A stretch of DNA of 56,031 nucleotides, the filler included, from Jimgerdemannia flammicorona (lineage: Eukaryota): assembly GCA_003990765.1 (NCBI GenBank). It is 3 parts of 3 records of this genome, joined end to end, with 100 filler letters (N's around TTAATTAATTAA, not from the genome) between each part and the next. Parts side by side here need not be neighbours in the genome. Positions count along the whole stretch, not along the records: positions 18,713 to 37,323 come from RBNJ01002162.1; 2 more parts are not named here. One strand, written 5' to 3'. Within the stretch, counting starts at the first letter, position 1. Each line of letters begins with the position of its first letter. The translations under genes were made by a program, and so were the position numbers. Of this stretch, positions 6,998 through 37,102 are shown in pieces. The notes beneath the pieces are model-generated. The model worked only from the letters and a program-made list of their open reading frames with translations. It was not told the origin of the DNA and did no database searches.

Positions 6998-7229
6998 TAT
7001 ATATATATATATATTTCAACTTATCTCAGTACATTCTGTAGATTGAGAATTACTGGGCTTCTACTAGTATAACATCTTCTATTTTGACCAGTTCCTACTC
7101 TTCAGTCTATGCTCTTCACTATTCCTATATAACATTTTTGCATTTGTATCACACCTTTCACTGGTAACATTCAGGTGACACAAGACTCAGACAACACTTT
7201 TTATAACATTTTTGGTGAAAGGAGATTAT

Positions 7230-9160: not shown

Positions 9161-9186
9161 TCTCAAATATCAAACATTTTTTAAAT

Positions 9187-12100: not shown

Positions 12101-12820
12101 ATATATTGGTGGAGAATTTCCTACTTGGTAATAGAATAGATTGCATGCAGGGCCTAGGGGGAGACCTATGGCCTGTAGTATGGCAGAGGGTGGGGATTGG
12201 TGAGAAGTGGGACTAGAATAGTCTTTGGTCTTGGAGCAAGCAGGTGATATGGTGACTTCCCCCCAAGTTCTGGGTGGTATGGTGGAGGTTTCTAAGGTGG
12301 AATGTGATACTGAACTATCAGTCTGGGCACTTGGTGGTGGATGGTACTTTTGAGTGTAAGGAATGTTTAAATGTTAGCTAGGAGGGGGGAGTGGTACAAA
12401 TGCCTGAACATTGGCTTAGTGAGTGTGAAGTTCTGGTGGAGTTTTGGCACTGTATTGTGAACTTGTTAGGACTGTAGGCCCTGGTGGGGAGGGAAGGGGA
12501 GTGATGGGGGGACCTCTGCTGAAGATTAGTAGGTGGGATTGGAGATGAGTAGCTGATCTTGGAATGGGTTTTGGCAATTTGGATTGGGCTGATCAGGTAT
12601 TGGCTACATGTATTCAAGGAGGGCCAGCAGGTTGAGGTTGGGGCCAGAGTGGCACAATGGGAATAGTTAATACTTGACATTTTGAATAACTAGTGAAGAG
12701 GGTGGGGACCAGGTGGGGGGGGCTGATAGAGCTTAGTAATATATATTTACCAGAAAAGTGGAGAGAGGGTTCAGGTGGCAGGTGACTGGGTTATCCTCTA
12801 ATGGGGAGTGATGGAGAGTG
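9187..12820 (+). pseudogene. LINE ORF2 (AP endonuclease, reverse transcriptase, C-terminal CCHC)
   Basis: SLNVNGLRG, GGDFN, SRIDW, SDHWG, GPGHWWLN; RT NWQPIML, LVFLNQKKPYDRV, GVLQGDPLS, FADN, YL; CKEC...EHWLSEC. Confidence 0.9.
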
Positions 12821-12830
12821 GAGAAGGGCA

Positions 12831-15800
12831 AAGACCACTTTCACCTTTCTCCTGTACAATTCATATTACACCAACTTCAAGCAATGGTTTTCGACCCAAC
12901 TTGGAGAAAAGATATTATACAAATGTCATCAAGCAAGAGTTCTAATGGGTATACTGGGTCAGGTGGACCTGAGGCTTTTGGCTGGCAGAATGTAGGGAGG
13001 GGGTGTGGCCTGGGAATAGGGGCCTTTGGAGGGTCAAAGGGTGGTGAGGGCTCTGGAGGTGGACCGGTGTCTGGTGGCAATGGGGGAAGGTCTGGCCCCC
13101 CAAGCTTTGCAGACAAGGTGAAGGAGAGTAGGTGGCCAGCTGGATCTAGGGCTGGTGCTGCTGAAGGGAAGGGCAAGGTGAGTCTAGGGAGGGGGTGAGG
13201 TACTCAGGTGGGGGATGTGAGCATAGGTGCTGGAGGTGCTGTAGCTGGGGGGGGGACTGCTGATGGAAGTGTGACAGGGAATCAGGAAAAAAAAAGAGAT
13301 GTGACAGCTGATGGCAGAGTAGGGTGGGGTTCTCGATGTGGAAGGAGGACCTGGCCAATGGTGTAATGGGGCTGGTGGTAGCACCATTACTCAGGAAATC
13401 GATCTTGGAGTTTGCAGTGACACTGTGCTTCTGAGGCTTAGTGGTGATGGCAAGGATGGTCTTGGGGCTTATCTTGAAGCAGGTGGCTGGGGCTGCCTCA
13501 GTTAAGTTCCTGAAGGGTCTGAAGGGGGTTGAGGTGGGCTTTGAGGAGGCAGGCCCACTAGAAGAGGCTCTGAAAATTGGAGTGGTGGTTGGAGAGGTAG
13601 TGGTCCCCATGGTGTGCTGCCTGAGGTGGGACCCAGGGTGGTGCAGCTGCTGGTGAAAAGGGGGTGCCTATAGTGATGAAGGAGGAGACTAGGAGGAGGG
13701 TGGAGGAGGTGATGGCATAATATAGCAATGTGGTGGATATTGGCTTCCAGGTGTGGGAGGGGACCTCTATCAGGACTGGTGATGTGGATGTGAGGATTTA
13801 ACTGGCTGGAAGGGAGGCCACAGAGAAGATGAGTAATTGGCCCTCGGTATTGATGTGGGGGGCTTTCATCTGTAAGGTATCAAGGGTGAGAGGGAGTGAA
13901 GAGGAGGAAGAGGACTTGGTGGAGGCTCTGGAGGAGTTGAGTGGTGCTGTTGAGAGGAGGGCAAAGGCCTGGAAATTGTATGAGGAGTCGATACATCTGG
14001 AGATTATTGATGGGAAGTGCATTCACACTGACAAGAGGCAGTGGGAGCAGGCCCAGGGGTGCATGAGGCAGAGGGAGCTGCTGGCAAGTATGAAAGGCAG
14101 GACAAAGAAGAAAGTGGATAGGGCTGAGGGGTCTGGGGGCATTGCAGCCAGTGTCTGAGCTAGTAAAGGAGGAGGGGAGGTGGAGGCAAACAAGGAAGGG
14201 GCTGGGAAGGTGCCAAGCAAGGACCCCTATGTGGATGGCATATTTGAGGTCTGGGAGGAGATTTTGGATGATGCCACCCCCCCCCCTCTTGTCAGGAGGG
14301 GCTCAGTTGTGAAGAGAGGGGCAGCAGAGGATGTGCTGATGCAGGGTGCCCAGCAAGTACACTTTGGGGTCCCAGATATGGTGAAAGGGGGCCAGGTGGT
14401 GGCAGTTGGTGAGGATAAGCTGGTGGATGTCCCAGAGGAGGAGTGGGATGAGGCTGCCAGTGTAGGAGCAGATACTACAATACTAGATGCAGGGTGGCCA
14501 GGAACTCCTGGAGGGAAGGAGGTGGGGAACCTGCTGTAGATGAGCAAGGTGATGGATAACCTTGCAGCTGAGGAGTTGGGTGAAGTGGATCTGTGGGTTA
14601 TGCCTGAGGAGCATTGGGCATAGATTCTGCATGGAGATGGGGTGGTGGAAGCATTGAAGGTGGAGATTCTTACAGTTTTCCTGGAGAAAGAGGGATATGA
14701 GATGGATAAGGTGAGAGAGGTAGAGCTGGTGGTTGTTGCTGGTGAGCGGGCTGTCTACTGTTTGGCAGAGCACTATGGTTTGCAGCTCTGGCAGGAGGCC
14801 TGTCTGGAGTATTGTGAGGACTTTGAGGAGAAAGAGGATGGGGCACTGGCTGAACTTTTGGGAGGGTTGGAGGCACAGGAAGCTGAAGCAAAGGGACTAG
14901 CTGCAGAGCATGACTTAGACTTGGCACAGGAGGAGTTGAATGCAGATTTGTAGAGGATGAGTTTGATAAATAACATTATTTCTTATGAACAGTACACTAA
15001 CATTTTCTTGCTGAATGTGAATGGGTTATGGGGATCTGGGTGACATAAGAACATTTTTACTTGGCTCAAGGGACTGGAGGCTGATCTCTTTTTGCTGCAG
15101 GATGTACAGTGAGGATGAGGATAATTAGATGGAGTGGACTAGGGAATGGGGTGGGGCTACTGCTTGGTTTGGTAAGGTGGCAATTCTGGTGAAGAAGGGT
15201 AGAGGAGATTTGGGGAGAATCAGGAGCTGGGGGGATCACTTGGTCTGGGGAGAATGGCATCAGCCAGGGTGGGAGTTGGTGAGGGTTGGCTCCTGCTACT
15301 GTCCTGCAGTTAGGAGTGAGAGGATTGCTTGAATTAAGGAGCTGCTAGAGGAGAGTATTCTCTTGGAGGAAGGAGTAGATGTTCTCAGTGGTGATTTTAA
15401 TATAGTTCAGGATCTGCAACTAGATAGGACTGATGGAGGGAGAAATGCAGGTGGGAGAAGTGGTGGTCTGGTTGTGTGGGAGGAGGTGGAGAATCTTAGC
15501 TCCTTAGGGGATATGGGCAGAACATGGTGGGGCAATACCAGGGTCTACACACATTGGGTGAATGGCTTAGGTACAAGGATTGACTGGATTCTGACTGCTA
15601 AATGTTGGGGTGCTGATATTTGGAAGTCTTTGGAGGTGGAGTAGTGCCCATGGTCTGATCACTGGGAACTATTAGGGCAGGGGCAGTTTGGGGGGAGTGG
15701 AGATGGACCTGGATATTGGCACCTTAACTCCTCTCTGCTGGCTGAGAAGGGGTTGTAGGACTCATGGGTAGAGGACATCCATGTGAAGGTTCCTCTCTAG

Positions 15801-18612
15801 AGGCATGAGGGTTTGTCTGTGGGTGTCTGCTGGATAAGGTTGAAGAAGGCTGCAAGGGTCTATTGGGGAGGAGCTGGTAGAGAGACTGGGAGATAGAGGA
15901 GGAAGCACATGCAGTGTGCTTCAAATAGACTGAGGAGATTGCAGATGGAATGGGCTGATTTGCTTGCTTCTGATGAGGTGGAGGATTGGAGATTAGAGCA
16001 GGTAAAATTGGAGGTAGTGGAACTGCAACAGGTGTTAAGAGAGGAGGAGGAGACTCATATGTGGGGAATGGCTACCAGGCTATAGTGGCAGGGGATTGAG
16101 GAGGGAGAGTGGCCTACTAGGTACTTGTCTAGGCTCCTCAAAGCTAGAAGGGTGTGTCATCGGTGGGATGGGGTCTTTGATGCCAAGGGGGATATGGTAC
16201 ATGACACACAACAGATCCTGGGGGTTTTGAAGGAGAGATGGTGGGGTCTGTGGAGTGAGGAAGAAGGGGGTGCTGATGAAGAGGCAATTGGGGATATACT
16301 GGAGGAGTGGGAGCCACCACAGGTTGAGGGTCTGGGTGACTTGATCTTCCTGGTCTAAGAGTAGGAGATCCAGAGAGTCCTTGTGGCAACTAAGCTTGGG
16401 ATAGCACCAGGGGAGGATGGGTTACCTTGGGACTTCTGGAAGAAGATGGCAAAGATTCCTGGAATATTAGAGGAGATGGCTACCCTCTGTGCCCATGTTC
16501 TTCTGAATGGCGAGTGGGTTGGAGGGCAGGACTTGGGGCTGGTGGCCTTATTGTACAAAGACAAGGAGAGGAGGGAGGATTGGAAGAACTGGAGACCAAT
16601 CATGCTTCTAGATATGGACAGGAAGATGGTGACTAAGGTGATTGTCACAAGGCTACAGAAAGTTGCTCAACAGGTGCTGGGTGAGGAGCAGCAAGGCTTT
16701 GTTAGAGGCAGGCTTATAAGAGACAAGACTGCATGGGTACATGGTATCATTGAAGGGGCATAGGCTTGTGGACTGGATGGTAGATTGGTCTTTTTGGACC
16801 AGGAGAAGGCCTATGACTGTGTATGGTGGGTTTGGCTGGGAAAGGTGCTGGATAGAATTGGTGTTCCCTCAAGATTTCGGGCTTCTATGTTGAATCTGTT
16901 GGAGGGCAGCCAGGCAGTGCTGATGTGTAATAGTCACTGAGGTCTGGCATTTCCCTTGGGAAGAGGAGTTCCTCAGGGGGACCCTCTGTCTCCTATTCTC
17001 TATGCCCTTCCATTAGAACCTTTGATGGATAGGATTCACTGGAAGGTGGTAGGGCTCTCTATATATAGTATAGTGTGGAAGGTGGGGGCCTTTGCTGATG
17101 ACAAGGTAGTTGGACTTGGGTCTGTGGCAGATGTTGAGGCACTACAAGAGACAGTGGAATGGTATGAGGCACACTCTGGGGTGAAGCTCAACTGGCATAA
17201 GTGTGAGACAATGGTGCTAGGGAATGGACTAGTAGGTGGGGATGTCATTGGAACAATTGTCCCTACTGGTGAGGTAGTGTGGTATCTGGGCATATTCCTC
17301 TCTGTATATGGATCTGTCTTGCCTCGAGTGTGGTGGGAGAACAGGGTGACCATTTGGGGGGAGGCCCTTCAAGGGTGGGGGGGTTGCCATATCTCTTTGG
17401 CAGGGAGGGTGTCAATTCTGAATGTTTACTGGTTCTCCAAGCTTTGGTATGTGGCGTATCACCTAGACTTCCCAGCTTAGGTGGTGAAGAGGCTAACAAA
17501 GATGGCTAGAGACTGGATTTGTGTAGGAAGGAGGTCCCAGATCAGTTGGGATACTCTTGCAACACTGGTGGTTAGGAGAGGACTGGGCCTTGTAGATTTC
17601 CCTAAGAGGTTGCACTGCCTACGAGCCTGGTGGTTGAAGAGAGTTGTTGAACTGCAGGGAGGGGGATGGGTGCTACTGTTGCAGAAGATATGGGATATGA
17701 GATCCTCCCCTTGAGGGTCCTTGGGAGATTTACTCTCTTTGGTGGGGCTGAATGGTAGTTGATGGCTGCAGTTTAAGGGCTTCTGGTGGAGGGTGGTGGA
17801 TGGAGCACACAGAATTGGACTGTGCTGGCAAGGCAATGAGGAGGAGGTGATATGGGGTCCCAATATATGGCAGTGAGATAGACTGCTTCTGGGGGGCACC
17901 CCACTTACTAAGTTTGATATTGGGGATAGAGTAGAGTGTCAGCAGGGTCTTGGCCAGAATCTTTGGCCGAGTGGCTGGCAGGTGGCAAGGATTGGTGAAG
18001 AGTGGGACTGGGCAGGTGTCTGGTCATAGAGTGCTAAGGTGAGGCAATGGCTTCCTCCCAAGTTCTGGGTGGTATGGTGGAGAATGCTGTGGAGAAATAT
18101 CATGTTGAATTTCCATACAGGGCATCTGGTGGAAGGTGGCCATTTAGATTGTGAGGAATGTTATAATGTAGGGCAAGTTGGGGGATTTATACAGATGCTG
18201 GATCATTGGCTGGGAGAATGTGAGGTTTTGGGGGACTTTTGGATAGAAGTAAGGAATAGGCTAGGTGTGGAGAGGAGGCTGGATAGTGCGAGAGGCTGCT
18301 GGGAGGATTTGAAATCTCAGCTAGTGGGTGGTATAGACAATAGTTGGCTCATGTAGGGTGGGTGTTAGTAGTGTGGGTAGGATTGGCTGGCCATTGGCTC
18401 TTTGTGTTCGAGGAGGGGTGACAGATAGGTTTACAGGAGAAGTTGTTAAGATGGGAGGGGTTGATGGGAGATCTGCTGACTGGGTGGTGGGTGGATTGGG
18501 GTCCCGAGAGTGGGTGACATTGTGGTCTAGTGGAAAGGATCTGTGAACAGAGTGGTGGGCAGGTGGAGATGGTGTTAGATAAAGTGGCCTTTCATCAAGT
18601 GGGGGTAGGGGG
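12831..18612 (+). mobile_element. LINE copy 2 (diverged subfamily), nested in copy 1, runs into gap
   Basis: ORF1 from ATG 12923 (MSSSKSSNGYTGSGGPEAFGWQ) to ~14953; ORF2 from ATG 14985 with GDFN, SDHW, NWRPIMLLDMDRK, LDQEKAYD, GVPQGDPLSP, FADD, CEEC...HWLGEC. Left boundary approximate. Confidence 0.9.
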
Positions 18613-18712: not shown

Positions 18713-19015
18713 TCGGGTTCAGGGTCGGGTTCAGGGGTCGGGTTCAGGTTTGGGTTAAGGGTAAATAACGGGTCGGGTGACATACATTTCCAGGTCGGGT
18801 TAAAGACGGGTGACGTATTATTCCGGGTCGGGTTAAAGACGGGTGACGTACAATTCTGGGTCGGGTTAAAGACGGGTGACGTATAATTCCGGGTCGGGTT
18901 AAAGACGGGTGACGTATAATTCCGGGTTGGGTTAAAGACGGGTGACGTCTAATTCCGGGTTGGCTGTTTTACGGGTCGGGTTTCGGGTTAATCGGGTCGG
19001 GTTTGCGGAGCACTA
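18713..19015 (-). mobile_element. Terminus of a young hAT-like DNA transposon (TIR plus subterminal repeats)
   Basis: Minus strand begins TAGTGCTCCG, sharing the 9-nt terminus TAGTGCTCC with the hAT at 54061; many ACCCG motifs; interrupts the family C leader. Confidence 0.75.
18794..18958 (+). repeat. 33-bp tandem repeat x5 (GTCGGGTTAAAGACGGGTGACGTATAATTCCGG)
   Basis: Units start at 18794, 18827, 18860, 18893 and 18926. Confidence 0.95.
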
Positions 19016-19133: not shown

Positions 19134-19615
19134 AAATGTGGTATGCAGTTTGTATCTCTAGTTGCTTCTGGCATAGCTCAATGTACCACTTGGTGGAGCG
19201 CATGGTATATGACTGAGTACGTTTGTGATGGTTGCGGGTTGATGATCACGTGATCAGTTCATCTGATTTGTACAGTGGAGGCTTGGGGCGAATTACTTCT
19301 TGAACGTACATGGTTCGTGGTGCAGTAGGGAATCGTTCAGATCAATGGTTCGGTTGAATGTTCATTCTTAACTTGAGGGCGGGTTCTGGCAGTTGTTTGT
19401 TTACTGGTGGTTGTTCATTTACTAGTAGTTGTTCATTTACTGGCAGTCTTATTCTAGTATCCTTGGGTTCCTTGGCTGGGGTCTTAACACTTGAATGGCG
19501 GGTCTCGAATGTGTGGTCTTGAACCTTGAATGGCAGTTGGTTCTGAATGCATGGCAGTCAGGCCGAATGTATGACAGTTGGACTGGCAGGATCTCGGCAG
19601 TGGTTGGCAGTTTTT

Positions 19616-19780
19616 GTGTGGCTTTCCTTAGCGGCGAATCTTGAACTGAACAGCTTTTTCATGCGGCTTTCCTTAGTAGTGAATCTTGAACTGAACAGCT
19701 TTTTCGTGTGGCTTTCCTTAGCGGCGAATCTTGAACTGAATGGCTTTTTCATGCGGCTTTCCTTAGCAGCGAATCTTGAA
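19616..19780 (+). repeat. 45-bp tandem repeat x~3.6 in LTR C U5
   Basis: GCTTTCCTTAGCGGCGAATCTTGAACTGAACAGCTTTTTCATGCG at 19621, 19666, 19711 and 19756 (partial). Confidence 0.92.
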
Positions 19781-20046
19781 CATTTTCTGTGGTAAGAAAA
19801 AATTCTTTAACTCAAATCTCGAGCAATCGTTACTCTAGTTATCTTGTTCTTAGAATTTATCTAGTCTCTTGGAGGCAGTGAGGTTTCTCTGTAATCCTTT
19901 TTACTTTTAAACACAAACTGACTGCGGTTTATTCACTCTAAGATATAGGGTTATTTATACAAATTTGCTAGCTAGGGGGGGGGGCTAAGGTATACTACAT
20001 TGTGGTGGTTTAATTGCTAAATATGAGTGTGACAATTGTTTGTGCC

Positions 20047-20302
20047 GAATTGGGATAAGATGAGTGCTAGTGCTGGATATAGATGTTGTGGGTGGTATCG
20101 CTGAAAACGGATGTTGCTGACTTGCTGACAAATGTTGGCTGACCGGACTGAGGAAATGGACGTTGGATCACTGAATTGGGATAAGGTGAGTGCTAGTGCC
20201 GGATTTGGTTGTTGGGGGTGATATTACTGGAAACGGATATTACTGACTCACTGACAAATGTTGGCTGACTGGACTGAGGAAACAGATGTTGGATCACTGA
20301 AT
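20047..20302 (+). repeat. ~126-bp direct duplication in LTR C U3
   Basis: GAATTGGGATAAG...GTTGGATCACT repeated at 20047 and 20173. Confidence 0.85.
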
Positions 20303-20443
20303 GGTAAAGTACCCTTCATCAGTGAACCAATCATCTTGCTGGGTTGTGACTTCTTCATCCTGTTCTTCAAAGGGTGGGAGCACCGGCCAGAAGGTGAGGG
20401 GGTAGAATTGTGGCCAATCATCTTCGATGACATTCTCTAACCC

Positions 20444-21219
20444 TTAGACTGCTTGAAGGCAGACAGAGAATTGGTAGATTCTTTGTTCCTCCTCTTCTTC
20501 TTCCTCAGATCCTTCAGTTTCTGTATTAGTAGGAACTTCTGGGACTTCTTGATTTGGTTCCCAAATGATGAGGTGTGAATTGTAGCTAACAGAGTGGTGA
20601 GTAGTTGGGGTTGCTCCAACAGGTGTTGTAATAGTAATGGGTGGTCCTTCGAAGATTTCCATGAAACTCATTAGGTGACCTTGATGGTTGTCTCGGAGTG
20701 GAGTGGTGTGAAAGCCTGGTTGAGTGGGCTCAGTTTGTTGGCTTCCTACAGTGACCCGGTTACTACCAATAGAGTTGGCTACTTCTGATTCTATCCAGTC
20801 TGTATCTTCAGTTGAGAGACGGGCAAGACTTCCAGCAGTCACTCCTTGTAAGTGTGCTATAGCCCAGGGAATATAGCAGAAGATTTGGTGGATATGGAGG
20901 GCTCTCTTGATTAGCTGGCTGGTGGTTAATATTTCGGCAATGAGGTCTTCCTGGTCACCTTCTTGGGTTTCATTATGAAGGCAGTGTCCAATTTCATAAT
21001 CATGCCAGAGGGTCATTCATTCAGTGGTATCTTTGAGCTGTGAGTCATTATGTACTGGTAATTGATGAAGTATCCAAGATCTTTGATGTAGAAGTTCAGA
21101 TGTTCAGAGGTGTCTGGGTGCCAAATAGCCTTCTTGATAGCTTCAAGGATTAGAGTCTTTGGGCCAGGCAAGGGAGAAGAGCAGCGGGAGGTCTGGTTGG
21201 GGTGGCGGATTGGAGACAT
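20444..21219 (-). pseudogene. Family C accessory ORF inside LTR U3 (~257 aa, one frameshift near 21015)
   Basis: ORF-track pieces 21013-21219 and 20444-21016 both align with the family B LTR ORF (DLGYFINYQYIM vs DPYHFILYCYEM; LWHDYEIGHCL vs MWQEYKIGNLL; HIHQIFCYIPWAIAHL vs KIYQIFRHTPWSIPNL). Confidence 0.75.
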
Positions 21220-21915
21220 TGTGAGGTGGATACTTGTTCTTTGGTGCCGATTCCTGAGGCAGAGTATGGTTCTTTAAATAATGTAGTCTTCCTTTTGGCT
21301 CGGATTATCATTGCTCCTTTTGAGGTGATCACCTAATGGGTCAGGCTGTCTATTTGATTGTCATGCCATTATGTCATCTGATCTTAGCAGTCACTAGTAC
21401 TCCATTGTCAATTACATATGTCACAATATATATTGTCACATAGTGGTTGCTGAGTTCTTCAAATATGCCAGATTCTCTTCAAGGTATATCTCTTAGACTA
21501 ACTCAAGTAATTATAAGCAAGTTCTTATTGGAGTGCCTTTCCAAGGTCTTATAGTCCTCAAACTTCTTATCTTTAACTGTCTTGTTATCTCTTAGATTGC
21601 TTGCAAGGAAGTGTGTATAAGTGAAACTGGAACTTGACTTTATTTCAAAGGAAATAAGAGGGGTATTTATACAAAATACAATTCAATGGTTGCTAAGATA
21701 TAAAGCTAAATATAAAATTCCAACAACTAAAACTACTAAGTTCCAGAGTCGGTACTGATGGTTGTATAGGTTCATGATGCTGGCATTATTTAATATTATA
21801 TACATCAAAATGCTGGTGCTGGAACAATTTCATGTCACCTCAGAATATCACTGCTGGCATTATCCAGTATTACATGAGAATACCGGTGCTGGCATTATCT
21901 AGTGTAACAAAGAAC

Positions 21916-22218
21916 TTAGAGCAGAAAGTTCAGAACTATGGGAGCTTCATCCTCATCATCATCATCACTGAAGGAGATGAGATCCATGAATTCAGCATGT
22001 AGGCTGCACATCTCACATACTTCATTGTCACATGTTTTGTGTACTTTGCATGCTTTGGGTATGTCACACAGGATAATGTCATTGATGACATCATCACATT
22101 CAGCTGTGGCAGGGAAATTGTAGACAAGGTTTGGAGCTCTCCAGTCTATGAGATTCTCTTCCACAAAATAGGAAACAAATGTGGGGTCTTGGGGGGGTTT
22201 AACCTGGATGCTTGAGCC
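21916..22218 (-). pseudogene. In-frame downstream segment of the LTR B ORF (Cys/His cluster, acidic tail)
   Basis: Same frame as 22219-22773, separated by one TAA; contains ACKVHKTCDNEVCEMCSLH and DDDDEDE; conserved in the 5' LTR (34963-35265). Confidence 0.6.
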
Positions 22219-22773
22219 TTAGAATACTGAGATCAATCCTTGCAGAAATTGGTCTGGGTTGTTCTGAAGGATAGGGTGTCAGAAGTCTTCTACTTCTTCA
22301 CTGTTGAGGGTGATAGTGGACTGGGCTTCTGTAGTCACCCTGGCTTCTAGTGTATTGATGCAGCAGGATGATAGGTCTCTGAAGTCTGAGACTCTGACAT
22401 ACTCTAAGTTGGGGATTGACCATGGTGTATGCCTGAAGATCTGATAGATCTTCTTAGCTGTCCTTATTTCGCATATATCCATGGGAGTGACATCTTGTAG
22501 CTCTTGGGTGCTGGCTTGTGGGAACTCCTGGCAGAGGAGGTTTCCTATTTTGTACTCCTGCCACATTTGGAGGTATTCAGTAGCAATAGTGATCCTTGTT
22601 TCCATTTCATAGCAGTAGAGAATGAAGTGATAAGGGTCTGCAGTACCCAGATTGACACTAGGAGTCCTTCTTGAGCAGGTCCTCATGGCTCTTCTGATGT
22701 CTTGGAACATTCTTTCCTCAACTGAGATACCTTGGTAATTCCTTGACCTTGAGGTTTGGTGGGCAGCAGGCAT
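22219..22773 (-). pseudogene. Family B accessory ORF in 3' LTR U3 (184 aa once the TGA at 22279 is read as Trp)
   Basis: MPAAHQTSRSRNYQG...LQMWQEYKIGNLL...TAKKIYQIFRHTPWSIPNL...; the 5' LTR copy has TGG at the stop position. Confidence 0.8.
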
Positions 22774-23349
22774 TTAATTTGTGGTAAGTCTTTGAGCTAT
22801 TTTGGGATTAGTGGTTCTTGTTGGTTGCTGCTACTGCAGTTCCTTGATCCTTCTTTTATATTCTTCAGGATGCTTGTGCTATAGTCACAATGACTTACAA
22901 TTGGTCATCATTGCTCATCTCATATGCTGTATGATCTTCTTATGCTCCAATCTGGTGTCTTGTAAGGAAAGGCTATCTCTGGTGCTGATGTCATCATTCT
23001 GGGGTTACCATTACATCTTCCTTCTGAATAAGGATCTTCCTGAGCATCCTTATTCATTGGTCCAGTCTTGAAAAATTTGCTGATCCCATAACCTCTGGCA
23101 AGGGGTCGAAAACTGGTGTTTATGGGCTGGTGTCTTCCCTTTGTATTTTGGCATGATGGTGGAGGGTCACTCTCTTTATATAGAGTAAGGATCTGATTCT
23201 GATCTTGACCAATCAGTTGATGGTTCGAACTTCTCTGACTGTGAAAGTCTCACAGATGAGTAGTTGCCAGTGCCATATCCCTTAGAGAATGGTCCAGACA
23301 GATAGCCTGCTGGTCATAGGACATACTGTTATGATTCACAGACTAGAAC

Positions 23350-24560
23350 CTCATGGGTGGTCATCATGTTTTGCTTCTCTTATATAGGTTCATAGTACTT
23401 CTTGAGTCTATTCCTATGTACTGTATTAGACAGTATGGTCTCTGAGATTTTTCTAAGCCAGAAGGTAGTTCTCTTAATATCTTGCATGTAGAAGGGTCCT
23501 TCCCATTTGGGCTCCAGTTTTCATAACCATGAGGCTTCTACCATATTTTGATAGAGTAGAACCTTTTCTCTAATTTGGATGGGTTCTAGGGCCTTGTGAT
23601 TCTTTTCCACATTCTTCCTTGTCAGTGCTTGTGACTTGGTGATGTAATCTTCGGCCTTCTTTCTAATTTGGTGTAGTCTCTGGATTTCTGCATCAACCCA
23701 TCTCTAAGTTAGGTCTAGATTTGTAGCTGAGATTCCATCAGAATCTTCTTCTCTAAAGAGCAGCTCTCTTGGGGTAAAATGTATGCTCTGTGACTATATA
23801 TCTCATAGAATAGAGAGAGCAGTTGGGAGATAGTTATCCCAATTCTCATATATCTCTGAGATCTTTGCTAGGATATTCTTGAGGGTCTTGTTGGTTCTCT
23901 CTGTTTGTCCATTTCCTTGAGAGTGGTACATGGTGGTCTTGATGTGCTGGATCTTATATTTCTGATACATTATCTCATAGAATCCATTGATAAATTCTGT
24001 ACTGCAGTCTGTTGTGATTTGCTTTGGTGTCTTGTAGCAGCAGATGATTTCTCAGTATAGGAAGTTGGCTATAGAGAGGGCATTGGCTTCTTGTAATGCT
24101 CCTGCCTCTATCCATTTGGTGAAGAGGTCTATGATAACTATAATATAGTGGTTTCCTGATAGTGTTACTGGTAGTGGTCCAATGATATCCATTGTGATGT
24201 GGTGGAAGGGGATAGGCTCAATTATTGATGATTCTGGTGCCTGGTCTTGCTGATCTTGTTTCTGTTTTTGATACTTGTCAAACTCTTTGACAAATTGGCG
24301 CAGGTCTTCTTCCATCTTGGGCCACCATATGGTTCTTCTTACCTTATCATATGTGTTGATTCCTCCTAAGTATCCTTGCTCATATACTTCCTTCATTACT
24401 TGATACTTCTTATATTCAGATATTACTAGCTTTTCTCCTTTTCTGAGTGTAGTATTATCTAATTCAAACTGTTTCCAAGTCTGGTTGATGATGGTAATTG
24501 TCCAGGGTTTGAGATGGTTGGGCATCTTCTGCTGCCTAAGGTAGCTGATTAATCCATAGT
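23350..24560 (-). pseudogene. pol: Gypsy B integrase
   Basis: PFHHITMDIIGPLP, IDLFTKWIEA, TTMYHSQGNGQTERTNKTLK, WEGPFY. Confidence 0.9.
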
Positions 24561-24599
24561 ATAGCTCCTTATTCATGTTGAGTAGTCTTGATGGGGGTG

Positions 24600-25900
24600 T
24601 TTCAGAGTGTCCTTGAGAGTGCATTGGCATTGGTATTGGTCTTTCCTGAGTAGTGCTTGATAGTACAGTCATACTCTTGCAGCCTGTAGATTCATCTGGC
24701 ATATATTTCTTTGGGGTTCAGAGTGTGAAATAGCCAGGCAAGAGCAGAATGGTCTGTTTGAATGGTGAAGTGTTTTCTGGCTAGGTAGTAGTGGAACTTG
24801 TCTACTGCTCAAACTACTGCTAAGCATTCAAGCTTGTATGACTTATAGTTCTGTTCTGCTCCACAGGTACCTTGGCTTATATAGGAGATGATATATTCAT
24901 GTCTATCTTTCTTCTGAGCTAGGACTGCTCCAAGTCCTATAGCACTCACATCTGTCTGCAGGATGAATTCTAGGTTCCAGTCTGGTCTTCTGAGGATGGG
25001 TGCTTGGGTCAACCTAGTCTTGAGTTTATTGAAGATTTCTTGATGCTCCTTGGTCCATTCGAATTTGGTCTCCTTCTTCAGTAGCTTGTAGATAGGTGCT
25101 GCAATGTTGGAGTATCCTTTGATGAATCTTCTGTAGTAGCTGGCCAGTCCAAGGAAGGCATGGACTTCTGTAGTTGTTCTGGGTCTTGGGTAGGCTACAA
25201 TAGCCTCGATCTTCATGGGGTCTGTGTGGATTCCAGTCTGGTTGATGAGGTGTCCTAGGTAGGCAATTTCTTGAGCTACAAACTTGCATTTCTTGGGCTT
25301 GATGTAGAGGCCGTGCTCCTTGAGTCTCTTGAGGGCTAGCTGTATGTGATTGACATATTCCCGTGCAGTATTGCTGAAGATGATCACATCATCAACATAG
25401 ACAAAGAGCCACTTTCCAATCTCATTGCTGAAGACTCTGTTCATCATTCGCTGGAAACTTGCTGGGGCATTGCACATTCCAAATGGCATTTGTAGATAGA
25501 TATTGGTGGTATCAGGTGTGATGAAGGCTGATTTCTCACTGGCATCTCGAGTGAGACCAATCTGATGGAAGCCTGAGAACAGATCCAAGGTGGTGTAGTA
25601 TTTGGCTTCGCTTCTAAGAGTGGTAAGGATTTCTTGAATATTCGGCAAGGGCTGCCTATCCTTCTTGGTAATGGTATTGAGTTTCCTGTAGTCAATGCAG
25701 AGTCTTGGTGCAAACTCTCCAGGCTTGCTTCCTTTCTTTGGGGTAAGGACAATAGGTGAGGCCCAGGAGCTGATAGCTTGCTTGATAATTCTGGCTTCTT
25801 CCATTTCCTTGAGTTCGGCTCACAGCCACTCTCTGTAGGCAGGTGGTATGGGTCTGGCTTTCTGATAGATAGGCTTGGTATCACCAGTGTCAACTTCATG
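24600..25900 (-). pseudogene. pol: Gypsy B reverse transcriptase and RNase H
   Basis: SSWASPIVL, RLCIDYRKLN, LDLFSGFHQI, MPFGMCNAPASFQ, YVDDVII, LQTDVSAIGLGAVL. Confidence 0.95.
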
Positions 25901-26089
25901 GTAGTACTTGGGTTCTTGATTGTGGATATCCCTAAAGTCTGTAGCAAGTACTCCTTCATTCTGGTACAGGATCTTGAGAAGTTGTTCCTCCAGGGGAAAG
26001 TTTTCTCCAATGGTATATATGTGCTTGTTCTGGTCCTTGTCTTTCTTGTGCTCAAGTTCAGTAATCTTGGTGGTGGCATAGGCTCCTCT

Positions 26090-26500
26090 TCCAGTAGATC
26101 CAAAGTCTTGTTCTCCTCTCTTAGTCTTGATAAGTTCAGTGGCTTCTATGATCTTGGGCTTCTTGATTTCATGGATCAGCATCTGGCCAATCCTGTCATG
26201 CTTTTTGACTTTGAAGGGAGTGGTGTGGTTGTGATTTCTGACTATGAGAAAAATCTCGCCAGTATAATTAGGGTCAATTACTCCTCCTTCAACTGAGATT
26301 TTGCTTTTGGCCAGACTGCTCTTGGTCTTGATAATTCCAGCATGGTCTTCTGGCAACTTGACTCCAATTCCAGTGCCAAGTAGGGTAGTGGTCTGTGGTT
26401 CAAGAGTAGCATCTTGGATGCTGGCAAGGTCCATTCCTATGGCTTCTTCAGTCTTGTATTCTGAGATCTTGGCTTCAGGGTGAAACTTCTTGACCTTGAA
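26090..26500 (-). CDS. dut: dUTPase domain in Gypsy B pol (between PR and RT)
   Basis: Motifs GMDL, KSSLA, GGVIDPNYTGEI, DRIGQ and RGEQDFGSTG in an open frame. Confidence 0.92.
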
Positions 26501-26879
26501 GGTGATGTCTGATTCTTGTTCTTCCTCATTGTCACTGTCAGCTTGAAGCTCTGGGGGCTGGTCATCTTCTTTGGCTTTCCTTTTTGCTTTGGCAGCTTCT
26601 TGCTTATGTTTCTGTTGGTGGATTTTCCTGACTTTACTGATATAGGACCAGCAGTCATTCAGGTGTTCAGAGCAGTACATTCATACCATGGGGGCATCTT
26701 CCTTGAGGGGCATACTCATCAATGATCTTGTTATACCACTGCTTATCTGTGAGCTTGGGTGTCTTGTTCTTGTTCTTGTTCACTGAGTACATGAAGACCT
26801 CTGTGTCTTCTTCATCTTCTTCCTCTATGTCTGACAGGACTCCTTTGTGGACATTGATAGAAACTCATACCTTTCTTCC

Positions 26880-27220
26880 TCTGTAGTTGATCTGCATCTT
26901 CTGGATATTGAGGTCAATGATGGCCTTGGCCTTGTGAAGCCATTGGTTGCCAATAAGGATGTCATAGTTGGTGGCGCTTGTAACAATTACATCTACTGAG
27001 ATGGTAGCTCCTCCTATCTTGATGGGGACTTCTTGGATTTTGCCAAGAGGAGTAGCTCATATACCATCTGCTGTGACTTAAACCATCTTGGTAGACTCTT
27101 TAATGTCCCAACCTAGGCAGTCAATTGTCTTCTTACTCATGAGGCATCCTCCAGCACCAGTATCAATGATGGCATCAAAGATACAGTCTTTGATCTGATA
27201 GGGGGTATAGGCTGATGTCT
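26880..27220 (-). pseudogene. Gypsy B aspartic protease
   Basis: AIIDTGAGGCLMS and YDILIGNQWL. Confidence 0.85.
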
Positions 27221-27399
27221 TGTGCTGGTCTTCAGATTCTTTACCTGAGTTCTCAGATTCTTCTTGTGCATTGTGAGCTTCTACAATCTTGTACTCTTGA
27301 TTCTTGGTAGTAGTTGCAAGTCCTACTCTCAACTGCTGTCTGAAGGCAGAGACTTCAGCTAGCTGCCCAAAAGTGGCATTGACCTTCTGTTCTTTGAGG

Positions 27400-28410
27400 T
27401 CCTTATAGATGTCATACTGGTGGATCTTGGTCTTGCACAGCTTCTGTTCCTTCTCGCTCTTGCTTTCTCCTGAGACTGGAGTAGTGCCTTTGATAATTTG
27501 GTGGGTAGCTTCATCTAACTCTATGTCTTGATCAATCTCCTTGGGTTGGGTCTTGTTTTGAATAGTGACAGCTGGAGTCTTCTTTGGTCTTCCAACTGGC
27601 TTGCTGTTGCTCTTCTTGTCATAGGGCTTGGACCAGGTTCTGATACCTTCAGTAGCAGGGTAGAATTCAAGCTCCTTGTAGTATTCTTTGTCATCAGTGT
27701 CACTGATCTCCTCGATGACTACTGCATTGGTTTGTTCTCTGGTTCTGCTAGCATTGCTTGGTTGGGCTTTGCATCTTGTTTCGGTTATGCAACTCTTTGC
27801 ATAGTGGCCTTCTTCTCTACATCTGAAGCATGTGATATTACATTCTTCTATAGCAGCTGCAAATCTCTGTGCTGGTCTCCTGTTGGCACTTCAGACTTCT
27901 CTAACAATATCACTGAGGTGTGTAGTCATCTCAGCAAACTGCTTGGTAAGTTCTTCCACTGGGTTAGCTTTGGCTGTCTTGGGGGTAGGTGGGGTTGGTT
28001 GTCTGTTTACAACTATGGCAGATAAGATACTAGTTGGCTTTGATGGCTCCATCTTGATGCTAGTTATTTTCTCCATTGAGTGTTCGGCAGGGTGTCTGGC
28101 AGTCCAATATCTCTGTGCAAAGACCACTTTCTGATCAAGGGTCAGTGCAGCTGGAGTAGACTGGATTGCTAGGGCAATTTCAGAGTGAACTCCTTTGAGG
28201 AAGGTTGAATCCACTATTTGTTCCTTGAGGTAGTCATCATAGCCAGCCAAGACAATCTGGTAGCAGATTTGGGTATAGAATGAGTTGGGATCTTCACTAA
28301 GTCTCTGGCAGATAGTATTGAGTTGATCCTTGAGAGCTTGCTTGATCTCTTTGGTATAATATGTTGTTCTGAGGAAGACCTTCATGTTGGCAAGTTTGGC
28401 TGCACCAGCG
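27400..28410 (-). pseudogene. gag: Gypsy B gag, C-terminal part with CCHC zinc knuckle
   Basis: Continues AGAAKLANMKVFLRTTY from the N-terminal part across the LINE TSD; CFRCREEGHYAKSC at ~27789-27830. Confidence 0.85.
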
Positions 28411-31400
28411 GGTGACACAAGACTCAGACAATACTTTTCACTATGTTTTTGGTATCTGATGACTAACAACATAGATGGCAATGATTGAACTGGTGAGCAT
28501 ACTGGTCAGGGGGGCGATGGCGCCTTTGGCTGGCAGCAGGTGGGGAGGAGGGGAGATGGTTTGGAGATACCAGGGGCCTCAATGGCTAGCCGAGGTCCTG
28601 GTGGTAGAGGGAGGGGTGGTCTGAGGCAGAGAGGAGGGGAGAGGTCGACCTTTGCTAACAAGGTCAGAATGGGGAAGATGACTTTGGGTCTTGATAGTTG
28701 GCTGGACCTGGGGAAGGTGTTGATGGCTGTTGCTGGGGGACTGGGAGGTGTACCCAGGGGTATCGCTGAGAGTGGGGGAGGAGCGGGAGTAGGGGCTGGA
28801 GATGTGACTATTGATGAGGCTGTGACTAGGGATCTGGCAAAAAATCCAGATATAATGGCGGTTGATAATTCAGGACGAGGAGTGGGCACAAGGCCCAGAG
28901 ACCTGGTAGATAGGGTTACAGGCATAGTGTCGGCCCCATTACTCAAGAAGTTGAGGTCAGAATTTGCAGTCACAATGTGTTTCCGGGGCTTGGCAGTGAC
29001 AGCGAGGATGATTCTGGGGCTAGTGGTGTAGGAGGCAAAGAGCACAGCATCAGTGAAGTTTTTGAAGGAGAAGGAAGGAGTCAAGGTGGGGTTCGAGGAG
29101 GAAGACACCTTGCTGGCGGCCTTGGAGAAAGGGGTAATAGTTGGCAGGGTTATCATCCCTATGGCCAGGTGCATGTGCTGGGACCCCCAAGTGGTGCAGT
29201 TGACAGTGCTGGATCTCTCTATAGTATTGAAGGAGAGGACCAGAGAGTTGGTCATGGAGGTGATCAGGGAGTATGGAGAGATTGTGGATGTTGGGTTCAA
29301 GGTCTGGGAGGGTACAGAGCTTTGGACTAGTAATATCAATGTTAGGGTGAGACTGGCTGGGAGGGAGAGTACAGGGAAGTCGAGGGACTGGCCAGCGATG
29401 CTGAGGTAGGGACTGGTGGAGTACAAGGTCACGAGGGTGAAGGGGACCCAGAAGGAGGAGGAAGACCTGTTGAAGGCTCTGGAGGATCTGGAAGGGGCAG
29501 TCACAAGGAGGAAGAAGTTTGAAGCCAGGATGGTGGTAGGGGAGGTAGATGGGAAGAGGGTCCAAATGGAGAAGGGGGCCTGGGAGAAGCTGCAGGAGAG
29601 GAATATCCAGAAGGAGCTACTAGTGAGGTTGGATGGGGGTCAGGCCAGTGGAAGCTCAGGGGAGAGGGGTGTGGGATTGCAGGAGAGTGTCTGGGCTGAA
29701 GGGAGTGAAAGGGCCCAGAGTGGGGCTCAGCTGGGAGTGGAGGTGGAGAGGGTAGACAATATGGGGGCAGATGTGGAAATGAGTGAAGGTGTGCACCCCC
29801 AGTATAGTGTCCCAAGTAGAGCTAAGAGAGAGGAGGAGCTGCTTGATGTGCTGGATGAGGAGTGAGATGAGTCAGTGCAGAGGAGCATACTGGTGGACCC
29901 TGAGGTAGATGGGGGACAAATCGCTCAGGGTGCAGTAGAGGCAGTGGATGAGGAGAAGTGGATGTAGAAGACCCTGGAAGGGGTAGCAGCTGAAGAGCTG
30001 GGGGGTGAGGATTTCAGGGTGATGGAAGAAAGGTATTGGGAGGAGATCCTATAGGGGGAGGAGGTGCTGAGGAAGATGAGGAATAAGATCCTGGCTGTTC
30101 TCCTGGAGTTGGTTGAATATCAGTCAATGATCAGAGAGAGGAGGAACTTAGGAGAATTGTGAGTGACAGGGCACTATTCTTGTGGAATTCAAGGAAGGGA
30201 CTAGAGAAGTGGCACACAGTCTGCTTGGATTATCAGGCAGATATAGAGATAGTAGATGGGGTGGAATGTCAGGAAATCTTGGAGGCACTGGATGCTCAGG
30301 CTAATACAGAGGGTGACTTAGAAGCAGAATGGTGCTTAGATCTGGCTGGGGATGAGATGAGCATGGATTACTAGGATGGGGTCTCTCTTGCAACATTTTT
30401 TCAATATGAACAGTACAACTAGGATATTCTCTTTGAATGTTAATGGGTTATGGGAGGCTGCTAGGAGGAAGTATATATTTGGATAGCTTAAGAGACTAGA
30501 ATTGGACCTCTTCTTGTTACAGAATGTTTGTTATGAAGTAGATGTAGACCTCTAGGATTGGACTAAGGAATAGGGGGGTGTGGCAGTATGGAGGGGAAAA
30601 GTGTGTATCCTTATTTGGAAAGAGATGGAGGACATTGAGGATATTGGACATTGGGGGTCTCAGGTGGTGTGGGGAAGGTGGTTGAGGCCTGGATGGGGCT
30701 CATTGATGATTGGGTCTTGTTACTGCCCAGCTGAGAGAGGGGAGAGGGTGGACTGGGTTTGTAGATTGAGAGAGACTGGTGTATTGGGAGAAGTTGGGCT
30801 GGACTATATGGGGGGTGACTTCAACATGGTATGGGATAAGGAGATGGACAGAACAGATGGAGGAAGAGGTGTGCAGGGCGAAAGTGGTGGGCTGGATGAC
30901 TGGTTGGAGACAGAGAGATTGTGTTCTCTAGTGGACTCAGGAAGGCATTTTTGGGCTGATCGGCAGGTGTACACCCACTGGGCGGCAGGGCTGAGCTCCA
31001 GAATTGACTGGGTTTTGACGGCGGAGTGTTGGGGAGTAGATATCTGGTCAGCACTGGAAGTAGTTTGGTGTCCATGGTCTGATCACTGGGGGCTGCTTGG
31101 AGGGGGGAGGTTTGGAGGAAATGAGGATGGGCCTGGACATTGGCAGCTAAATTCTTCCTTGTTGGAGGATAAGGAGTTGTGGGAGGGTTGGGAGGCAGAG
31201 GTGGTTGGAAATATTGGTAGGTGGTGGGAACAAGGCCTTGAGACTGGGGACCGCTGGAGGAGGCTGAAGGTGATTGCTCAGGGGTATTGGAGGGAAGCTG
31301 GGAAAGCAAAGTGTGCCCAGCAAAGGCAGAGGGTGCTGTGGGCCTCACAGTATCTGGCAGCACTCATGGAGAGATGGGCAGGTGTGCTGGAAGATGGGGA

Positions 31401-34165
31401 CATGACTGATTGGCATATTGTGAGAATCTGGCAGGAGGTGGAGGAGCTTAAAGGAGTGTTATGAGGGGAGGAGGAGGTGAAGCTGCAGGGAATGGTGGCC
31501 TGACTATAGTGGAAGGGGCTTGAGAAGGGGGAGAGGCCTACTAGGTTTTTGTCATGGTTGTTACAGGTATGATGAACAAGGCAGCAGTGGGAGGAAGTTC
31601 TGGATGTGAATGGTGAGCTGGTAGTGGGGACTCCAACTATTCTGGACCTATTGAGAACCAGATGGAGGAACCTATGGAGTGAGGAGGAAGGAGGAATAGA
31701 TGCTCTGGACATTGAAAGGCAGCTGGGGGATTGGCACCTGGACCCTGTGATGGGGCTTGGGGCATTGGGGGACCCAGTGAGTGGTAAGAAAATTCACAGG
31801 GTTGTGGCCTCGATGGGTAAGGGGACAGCCCCAGGAGAGGATGGACTTCCCTGGGATTTTTGGCAGAAGATGGCAGGAGTGAGCGAGGTGCTAGAGGAAA
31901 TGACTGCTATGTGTAATGGAGTTCTCCAGTCTGGTGCTTGGATTGGGGGATAGCATTTAGGGCTAGTCTCCTTGCTCTACAAGAATAAGGTGAGGTGAGA
32001 GGACTGGAAGAACTGGTGGCCAATCATGCTTCTCAACATGGACCAAAAACTGGTGACAAAGATCTTAGTGATGAGGCTGCAAGGAATCGCTCAGCAGGTG
32101 CTTGGTGTGGAACAGCATGGGTTTGTCAGTGGCCAGTTGATTCATGATGGGACAGCATGGATACATGGAGTGATTGAAGGTGCCCAGGCAACAGGGGTGA
32201 ATAGCAGATTGGTGTTTCTGGACCAAGAAAAGGCTTATGACAGAGTGCAGAGGATATGGCTGGAGGGAGTGCTGAGGCAGATTGGTATCCCCCCAGGGTT
32301 CCAAGAATCATTGATCAGCCTCTTGGAGGACAGTCAGGTAGCATTGGTCATCAATAGCCACAGGGGGGTGACCTTTCCTTTAGGACATAAGGTGCCACAA
32401 AGAGACCCCTTGTTGTCCATATTGTATGCCCTTTCCCTAAAGCCTCTACTGGATAGAATTTGGTATTGGATTGGGGGTTTGGACATTTTAGGAATTAATT
32501 GGAAGGTGGGGGCCTTTGCTGATGATATAGTGGTTAGGCTGGGCTCCTTGGTAGATGTGGGGGAGTTACAGAGATCTGTGGAATGGTATGAGAGGAGTTC
32601 TGGTACGAAACTGAACTGGCACAAATGTGAGACTCTGATACTGAGTGCTGGAATTGTGGGCAGCAATGTCATTGGAACAGTGGTACTGGCTGGAGAACCA
32701 GTACGTTATTTGGGGATTTACTTCTCAGTGTTTGGATCTCTTCTTCCCCAGGAATGGTGGAACTGAAAACTTCTAGAGTGGGGCAATGTTCTGCTGTGAT
32801 GGGGAGGTTGGCATATGTCACTAGCGGGAAGAGTGATGGTACTGAATGTGTATTGGATGCTGAAGCTATGGTATGTGGGATATCATCTAGACTTCCCAAC
32901 CTGGGTGATCAAGGAACTGTTGAAGATAGCAAGGTCATGGATCTGAGGAGGATGGTGGAGCCAGGTGGGTTGGAAGGTGCTCACACTGCCCTTAGAAAGA
33001 GGTGGGCTGGGCCTAGTAGACTTTGCTAAGTGGCTTCAATGTTTGCGAGCTTGGTGGTTGCATAGGGCAAGTGAGCTTAGGGGTCAGGAGTGGGTGCCAC
33101 TTATGTAGAGATTGTGAGAGGTTCAGTACTCCCCACATGGTGGCTTGGGTGATCTGCTCATGATGGTGGCCATAGATGGGAGCAGGAGGATGTGGTTTAC
33201 AGACTTCTGGTGGGGGGTGGTGGATGGTACTAAGAGAATTGGACTTCAGTGGCACGGTGATGAAGCTAAGAAGATTGGGGACTGCAGATGTAGTGGTGGG
33301 ACAGGCTTCTACTGGGTAGAGTTCTGGTGGAGAACTTTCAGCTTGGTAAGGGTTTGGAGTGTCTGTGAGGCCTAGGTGGAGACCTGTGGCCCGAAGCCTG
33401 GCAGAGGGTTGGAATTGAGGAGGAGTGGGATTGGAATGGGCTCTGGCTTTGGAGTAAACAGATGAGGCAGTGGCTGCCCCCCAAGTTCTGGGTAGTGTGG
33501 TGGCATATCCTATGGCAGAATGTAATGTTGAACTATTGGTCTGGGCACTTAGTGGCTGGTGGAGTGTTCGAGTGTGAGGATTATTTCAGTGTTGGTCAGG
33601 AGGGCAGTGTTGTACAAATGCCTGAACATTGGCTTAGCAAGTACAATGTTTTGGAGGAGTTTTGGAGATGTATTATGAACCAGTTAGGGCTGGGTGCCTT
33701 GGAGGGAGAGGAAGGAGGGAGATGGGGAGAGCTTTGCCGGCGACTGGTGGGGGGGGTTGGGAATGAATGGCTGACCCTTGGTTGGGCTTTGGCCATGTAG
33801 GTTGGGTTAGCTAGACATTGGGTTCATATCTTCGAGGAGGGGTGGCGGGTTAGAGTTGGGAATAAGGTGGCACATTGGGAATGGTTGCTATTGGACATTT
33901 TGAATAGCTGGTGGCAAGGTTGGGGGCTGGGTGGGGGGTACTGCAGGGGTTTAGTGCAGTATATCTCCCGGAAGAGTGGTGGGAGGATTCGGGTAGTGGG
34001 TAACTGGGTAGTGTTCAGACAAGAGGAGGTTGAGGGGAGAGGGTTGGGTCCACAGGGCATTGGGTGAGGGTGGGGTGATATTGTATTGTTAGTATTATAG
34101 ATGTCAGTAATAAAGGGCAGTCTAAGGGACTATAAAAAAAAAAAAAAAAAAACAAAAAAAAAAAA
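28411..34165 (+). mobile_element. Full-length LINE copy 3 with poly(A) and 19-bp TSD
   Basis: TSD AAGTTTGGCT(G/A)CACCAGC(G/A) at 28392-28410 and 34166-34184; ORF1 ~28460-30374; ORF2 ATG 30406 to 34067 with APE, RT (LDQEKAYDRV, FADD) and CCHC remnants. Confidence 0.96.
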
Positions 34166-34360
34166 AAGTTTGGCTACACCAGCATCAGCAATGGTGGCTG
34201 CATTAAACTTGTCTCTGGCAGGTCCTCTGAGGCTGACTGGTAGAAGGGCCAATTGAGCATCTATACCAAGAGCTCGTATGATGGCAAATTGTTCAAAGTC
34301 TTCAATGAAGATCAAGATTGACTCTTCAGTAGTATATCCATAGAATGTGGGGAGATACAT
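34166..34360 (-). pseudogene. gag: Gypsy B gag N-terminus
   Basis: MYLPTFYGYTTEESILIFIEDFEQFA...LPVSLRGPARDKF, a Ty3/Gypsy capsid-like start. Confidence 0.8.
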
Positions 34361-34466
34361 TTCTATCTTATCTTGAATTCTTGCAGGGGTGACTCTTGTA
34401 GTCAGGGTAGTTGTTGTGGGGATTGTTTATTTTTCAGCTTGAAAGTGAGGGATTTGTCTTGAATCA

Positions 34467-34483
34467 CCAGCCAATGGGTACCA
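34467..34483 (-). other. Putative PBS of family B (tRNA unassigned)
   Basis: TGGTACCCATTGGCTGG starts 3 nt after the 5' LTR end. Confidence 0.6.
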
Positions 34484-36227: not shown

Positions 36228-36589
36228 TTTTTTTTTTTTTTTTTTTTTTTATAGTCACTTAGACTTCACTATTTATTACCTATTCAGTCTATCAAGATAT
36301 AATTACAATATCTCAACCCACTATCCAATCTCTTGAGAGGGATCCTCTCTTATATCTTTATGATTAAATACTACCTTACTATCTTATACTACAATTCTCT
36401 TCTTACTTTACTCATATATCTTTTTTACTAAGTAATATTGATAACTCTCTTATAGACTCTATCTCAGCTATTAATCTATCAAGACATCCCCCATTAATTC
36501 TTTCTATCTCACTAATTACTCTCTTAAATCCAACTGCTGTCTCTCCTCAAAAACAAATAACTAATATCTAGTCAATTCCACCTATATAA
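36228..36589 (-). mobile_element. Old LINE 3' end (same superfamily), interrupted by LTR D
   Basis: Poly(T) then ATAGTCACTTAGACT...TTTATTAC, the reverse complement of the family 3' terminus. Confidence 0.8.
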
Positions 36590-37065
36590 TGTAACGTAGT
36601 GGATGCTTACTCTTGAAAGTATGTCGGATTTCTGTATCTTGAAAACTTGACTGTTCTGACTCTCGCAGAGTCTCTTGAAGTAGCAGGGGAGAGTGGGTGA
36701 GTTTGAAGTGTATCTGCCTGCAGGCTTACCAGTTCCTTTGCTATCTCTTTGCTTTGAACTATTTTGATCTGAGGTTTATTCACTCAAAGATACTGGGTTA
36801 TTTATACAAGTTTGCTAGCTATGAGAGGGTGGCTAAGTAATAAATGAGTCATTTGGACTTTGTCGAAACATTTGGACAATATCTAAATGCTATACTAAAT
36901 CGAGGTATTCGATTTGGATAATGTCCAAAATTTAGACAATGTCTAAGAAATTAGACAATGTCAAAATCGAGGACTGCTAACTATAATGCTATACTACTTT
37001 GGGAATGGATGCGATCAAGTGTCTATTCCCTATTTCCTTCTTCCAAATCTGGCTGTACCATCACA
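36590..37065 (-). mobile_element. 3' LTR of Gypsy family D (476 bp; termini related to family B)
   Basis: TGTGATGGTAC...CACTACGTTACA; PPT TATTCAGGAGGAAGT at 37066-37080; TATAAATA 36799-36806; AATAAA 36775-36780. Confidence 0.82.
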
Positions 37066-37102
37066 ACTTCCTCCTGAATAGATGGTCTTGTCTCTGAGGC
37101 AT

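Follow-up and report, generated by a model that had tools for sequence, protein, structure and literature searches.

The window analysed here, a stretch of 56,031 nucleotides in three joined parts from the fungus Jimgerdemannia flammicorona (assembly size 231 Mb), is a nest of decayed retroelements. In keeping with a fungal host, the assembly contains three above-cut-off matches to the chitin synthase N-terminal family. Retrotransposon LTRs are usually regarded as non-coding, holding control signals only; in both LTRs of one element in this nest, which we call family B, the U3 region contains a protein-coding gene. The gene, its carrier and its neighbouring relatives are arranged as follows, all on the minus strand.

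19148 to 21425 (minus): complete LTR of family N, separated from the end of the family B LTR by 8 bp of (AT)n (2191 of the 2198 bases of an N LTR aligned, at 87%)
20294 to 21219 (minus): homologous U3 gene of family N, frameshifted here (308 codons in open copies)
21434 to 23015 (minus): family B 3' LTR (TG...CA, 1.58 kb)
21639 to 21644 (minus): AATAAA, the sole one in the LTR, candidate polyadenylation signal
21666 to 21671 (minus): main TATA box of the LTR, located downstream of the U3 gene; the LTR has only two TATAAA motifs, this being one
21916 to 22773 (minus): U3 accessory gene, 3' LTR copy, with stops at codons 165 and 185
22855 to 22860 (minus): second TATAAA, 87 nt upstream of the ATG, candidate U3-gene promoter
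23016 to 23028 (minus): polypurine tract (PPT), upstream of the 3' LTR and hence of the U3 gene
23370 to 28505, ends approximate (minus): decayed family B gag-pol, with zinc knuckle, protease, dUTPase, RT, RNase H and integrase
34461 to 34483 (minus): primer-binding site (PBS; TGG...) after the 5' LTR, read from the sequence
34487 to 36062 (minus): family B 5' LTR of the same element
34963 to 35820 (minus): U3 accessory gene, 5' LTR copy, with stops at codons 71, 93, 185 and 190
37106 to 37321 (minus): family Q ORF3, 3' part; this ORF is short, distantly homologous and situated outside its LTR

The carrier is a Ty3/Gypsy retrotransposon by its gag-protease-RT-RNase H-integrase order and by its direct LTRs (TG...CA), PBS and PPT. 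Its domains run zf-CCHC, a weak aspartic protease, dUTPase, RVT_1, RNase H and integrase along the minus strand, and its two LTRs are 91% identical. AT-repeat sequence occurs on both flanks of the element, and a LINE-like element with a poly-A tail (window 28411-34168, plus strand; RT E 6e-19, weak endonuclease match) is nested in its gag. Copies related to this LINE-like element stand in tandem at about 5650-18240 of the window.

From 22773 to 21916 the minus strand reads as 285 codons and a stop. The ATG lies 243 nt inside the LTR, and about 245 nt separate the end of the gene from the main TATA box; the frame thus lies upstream of both that box (21671) and the AATAAA (21644), and is therefore in U3. 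The original prediction described LTR copies broken at different Trp codons, as they indeed are: at codon 165 (22279-81) the 3' copy reads TGA and the 5' copy TGG, and at codon 71 (35608-10) it is the 5' copy that is broken, by TAG, with TGG kept in the 3' copy. Also as described, a single TAA is common to both, at codon 185 (22219-21), and the frame continues beyond it. Codons 93 and 190 of the 5' copy are two more stops, in addition to those listed earlier. The stops at codons 71, 93, 165 and 190 each occur in one LTR only, and both copies of the gene in the window are dead.

The shared TAA had been explained either as a CAA codon lost from a single long ancestral gene or as a stop codon that is read through. 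We compared family B copies drawn from the 30 best DNA matches (40 scored of 3742 candidates) and from a further 30 that best matched a metagenome homologue; three frameshifted copies were dropped, leaving 57 in a single frame. Read across these copies, as had been proposed, codon 22219-22221 is CAA in 50, CAG in one and TAA in six, with no stop fixed. Codon 185 accordingly encodes an amino acid in 51 of the 57, which speaks for the long ancestral gene and leaves no readthrough. The full frame is open in 28 of the 57, and in nine of the 30 copies chosen by DNA, a choice without bias towards open frames (279-286 codons). This is one gene of about 270-286 codons.

A C-x2-H-x2-C-x4-C-x2-C-x2-H cluster had also been pointed out in the part after codon 185. 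It is complete in a single copy of the 57, the window's own, and is absent from the metagenome homologues. Its codons vary among copies between CGC, CGT, TGC, CAC and CAT, the pattern of decayed Arg codons, which makes the cluster an artefact of CpG decay; three of its six positions sit in a repeat that about half of the copies lack. We therefore rejected a zinc-finger protein, as there are no conserved Cys/His ligands and the cluster codons derive from CGY. Two products made through readthrough, the longer with a zinc-binding C-terminal extension, would suit the TAA in both window LTRs and the cluster in the window's 3' copy, yet the sense codon in most copies and the absence of the complete cluster from all other copies compared leave this reading with almost no credibility.

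The gene had been thought intact when the element inserted. This stands for codons 1-184 and probably fails for the full gene, since the stop at codon 185 is common to both LTRs. The two LTRs have 12 rare alleles in common, this stop included; 350 other pairs average 2.6 and reach nine at most. They are thus a true pair, and their donor most likely had the codon-185 stop already. To judge from these alleles, the full gene was probably truncated by the time the window element inserted; gene conversion between the two LTRs could be another source of the common stop. An element with a truncated gene in both LTRs apparently did insert, so the gene seems dispensable in cis, and this fits action in trans. 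Dispersal of the gene by solo LTRs, which had also been anticipated, is real and of minor extent in our sample: of 60 family B LTRs examined, 33 had both sides readable, and three of these are solo.

To assess selection, we counted variants common to at least two copies whose direction is impossible for deamination, with CpG columns excluded. On these shared non-deamination variants, family B has a dN/dS of 0.11 (8 nonsynonymous to 26 synonymous, p 2e-9), and the 27 DNA-chosen copies alone give 0.10. Separate values for the two segments, a check that had been suggested, are 0.13 for codons 1-184 and 0.06 from codon 186 to the end (p 9e-4); when the frame is shifted, the ratio rises to 2.2 and 4.0. 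Family P shows the same direction at 0.29 (p 0.003), and family N has few variants (3 to 3, p 0.33). Changes were too few for transversion-only tests. Deamination singletons are neutral, with a dN/dS of 1.2-1.4, so selection acted in lineages that were transposing, rather than on copies already inserted. Of 34 indels within the ORF, 29 have a length divisible by three, compared with 12 of 67 in the remaining LTR, although many of those in the ORF belong to triplet-unit repeats of the tail and are therefore not independent.

Nearly all premature stops (45 of 46) fall on codons that are mostly CAA, CAG or TGG among copies, as expected from cytosine deamination, and transitions make up 957 of 998 substitutions in seven LTR pairs. 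Within LTR pairs, CpG is hit most, followed by CpA and CpC, and CpT least; this dinucleotide bias fits decay of methylated cytosines with a non-CpG part.

An open frame that arose by chance in a repeat, without coding function, would agree with the lack of any match in Pfam, PDB or the Atlas. Such a frame would hardly show a dN/dS near 0.1 in the gene's frame only, indels that keep the frame and a protein conserved across families, and we regard it as very improbable. The predicted protein-coding gene under selection in the U3 of both family B LTRs is thus upheld by constraint beyond chance, and we are nearly certain that it is real and lies inside the U3 of a fungal Ty3/Gypsy LTR.

The protein is predicted to be soluble and helical with an acidic tail. 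A model of the core, about 200 residues (pLDDT 73, pTM 0.65), has nine helices, among them a 37-residue one, and is closed by a beta hairpin; the tail is predicted to be disordered. The start is basic in families B and P, and the tail has a net charge of -10 to -18. Two short hydrophobic motifs of the tail, D-L-I-x-F and P-x-V-L-N-F, are shared by the B, P and metagenome proteins and are absent from family N. We found no transmembrane segment, the highest 19-residue hydropathy being 0.29 (B), 1.21 (N), 0.75 (P) and 0.03 (Q), which speaks against an env-like ORF.

Searches with sequence and structure gave no family to which the protein belongs. Pfam had nothing above its cut-off for either window segment or for 45 aligned members, and there were no matches among PDB sequences. 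A first structure model (pLDDT 46) matched long helices only; the core model at pLDDT 73 had no Foldseek match at E <= 0.001, and its best structural match reached a Z of 4.4 (rmsd 2.8, 77 aligned). In the Atlas, the best score for B was 0.87, and P gave mixed clusters of unrelated proteins at 0.92; these are leads only. This is a new protein family, without a family match or a clear fold match. Hypothetical proteins of arbuscular mycorrhizal fungi may often contain a helical domain of this kind.

Relatives of the gene were found in other Ty3/Gypsy families and in metagenomes, both inside and outside LTRs. Four whole elements of family N have a 308-codon version in both of their 2.1-2.3 kb LTRs. 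Family P, a chromovirus with a chromodomain integrase, has a gene of 269-276 codons outside the LTR, its stop abutting the PPT. Family Q has a 153-codon version directly after pol and outside its 478-bp LTR (profile probability 94.8), consisting of a 153-residue helical core without the acidic tail. At metagenome locus L101 the gene lies just before a purine tract and TG start. Open copies number 10 of 21 in family P and 3 of 25 in family N. Identity between the B and P proteins is 40% across 272 residues (E 6e-61), and between those of B and N it is 29%; codon positions are conserved between families in the order second, first, third. Protein searches returned only unnamed or "hypothetical" metagenome proteins (5, 5 and 11 matches); the viral contigs searched held no relative, and proteins of 600-2000 residues held no fused or longer form, which is weak evidence.

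The end of a family Q element occupies window 36586-37321 (minus strand). This family is of high copy number and 92-99% identical over the piece searched, and its RT is 62-70% identical to that of family B. A further extra gene, the family C ORF3 (171 codons, window 47310-47825, plus strand), lies between pol and the PPT and has a Y-x-I-G-x-x-L motif that resembles the U3 protein; it is doubtful as a homologue, at a profile probability of only 5.7.

In an RT tree, B groups with Q and N with C, and P stands apart (B and P RTs are 39% identical); location in U3 accordingly requires at least two changes of place. Though B and Q are sisters by RT, the B protein is closer to that of P than to that of Q. 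These comparisons hint that the gene may have been exchanged between lineages, but a B+Q clade is not rejected (AU p 0.126).

Conserved motifs also lie before the gene. The upstream TATAAA is present in 50 of 52 family B copies and, at about -75, in 19 of 19 family P copies, and L101 has a TATA at about -80. Family N has TATAAA in this slot in 0 of 23 copies, with a variant, TATTTAAA, visible. A shuffled leader carries TATAAA in the slot 3% of the time, with one family's copies counted once. A 13-nt motif just before the ATG is common to B (33 of 52 copies) and L101. Conservation of the TATA box in B, P and L101 suggests a self-contained gene cassette with its own candidate promoter. One sequencing run of guessed type, which may be DNA, covers the LTR and hardly its flanks, and speaks neither for nor against expression. 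Around the main TATA box, about 70 nt are 74-87% alike in the LTRs of N, Q and C despite their distant RTs, a likeness that may point to exchange or to strong constraint on this core-promoter stretch.

Given these results, we propose that an accessory gene common to several Ty3/Gypsy lineages of the host travels as a cassette made up of a TATA box, a short leader and the ORF. In families P and Q the cassette lies between pol and the PPT, and in B and N within U3; there the LTR boundary, set by the PPT, would have shifted upstream and so taken the cassette into the LTR. In this position each B LTR, whether 5', 3' or solo, could yield its own mRNA without splicing, running from the upstream TATA box to the AATAAA of the LTR. 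The product may be a soluble trans-acting regulator of its own element's expression, either a transactivator or an anti-silencing factor, in which the helical core would bind DNA or chromatin and the acidic tail with its short hydrophobic motifs would offer an activation or recruitment surface. Taken whole, with the mechanism included, this is our best explanation, held tentatively and with a little less than even confidence.

We rank it ahead of two other roles. The protein may instead act after transcription, on the RNA or particle of the element, in export, packaging, nuclear entry or suppression of RNAi, like Rev-like and other retroelement accessory proteins. The basic N-terminus in B and P and the soluble helical core agree with such a role, as does the Q gene, which begins right at the end of pol like a late gene, and functions of this kind have been proposed for additional ORFs of retrotransposons (PMC7264820). 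We nevertheless judge it possible but rather unlikely, because no RNA-binding family was matched and because a regulator of transcription would account somewhat better for the separate TATA box and for the acidic tail, with its short hydrophobic motifs.

The other role is directed at the host or at competing elements, as copy-number control or as a selfish drive factor. At least three deeply diverged families have kept the gene, it is apparently dispensable in cis, and solo LTRs exist (as counted above); the U3 position would double the dose and let the gene outlast its element in solo LTRs. Against this, copies decay neutrally after insertion, as seen in the deamination singletons, which means that host loci were not what selection acted on, and the protein shows no membrane segment or enzyme fold, so that we consider such a role distinctly unlikely.

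Returning to a regulator of the element's own expression, a bolder form can be stated. A mobile promoter-gene cassette would encode an anti-silencing or transactivator protein of new fold, have been swapped between chromoviral and non-chromoviral Gypsy elements and have entered U3 more than once, with each LTR, solo ones too, an independent transcription unit, and would aid escape from heavy silencing by cytosine methylation in this fungus. We think this full version doubtful and offer it as a speculation. The U3 protein is a candidate for how elements kept spreading in a genome with heavily deaminated repeats.

Among known systems, the nearest in layout are the sense additional ORFs (aORFs, or ORF3) between pol and the 3' LTR, which have been reviewed as located in the internal region (PMC7264820). 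Like them, the gene described here is an extra 3' sense gene, present in most copies of a family, under selection and common to distant lineages. Families P and Q match the layout exactly, with the gene upstream of the PPT, whereas in B and N it is found downstream of the PPT, wholly within the LTR and in both LTRs. Bdelloid ORF3s are likewise common to different lineages, and GDSL or DEDDy enzymes are named for them (PMC5408684); the U3 protein has no Pfam match to either of these.

A whole ORF in U3 is known from MMTV, where one account places the entire sag ORF in U3, together with extra promoters upstream of the main one, and describes the product, Sag, of this mammalian retrovirus as a superantigen and type II membrane protein (PMC12789967). 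The U3 gene resembles sag in lying entirely within U3 and differs in its predicted soluble product, in which we found no likeness to Sag, its fungal host and its element without env. The same account describes foamy virus tas/bet as a 3' accessory gene that is expressed from an internal promoter and transactivates the LTR (PMC12789967). This serves as our working model, a 3' accessory gene with its own promoter acting on the LTR, although we found no homology, the candidate promoter here is a conserved TATA motif only and transactivation is proposed by analogy. For gene23 of maize Grande, another accessory gene, a promoter of its own and a nuclear product are reported (PMC7264820); it is antisense, internal and from a plant, and we found no likeness to it. 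By this comparison the U3 gene would be sag-like in position and tas-like in role, and a member of neither family.

The titles and abstract openings searched contained no U3-borne gene of a fungal retrotransposon, and a term search of PMC3601003 found no passage on ORFs in LTRs. A selected whole gene in U3 is already known from MMTV. As its relatives hold the gene both inside and outside the LTR, they show a route of genes into U3 and permit a direct comparison of the layouts.

Several further features of these elements were observed. A dUTPase domain lies upstream of RT in the pol of families B, N and P (window 25820-26680, minus strand; loci L063-L069, L113 and L117), and dUTPase-like text is visible in family C too. 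Tandem family B elements apparently with one common LTR occur at locus L011, and likewise for family P at locus L104. The window also contains tandem arrays at 18741-19004 and 54192-54373, with units of 33 nt and 14 nt, respectively. At another locus (L061:7005-9045, minus strand), a repeat of about 2 kb is inserted in the integrase of a family B element; its long ORF scores weakly against the profile of the U3-gene family (10.5 bits) and is possibly a further LTR-borne homologue.
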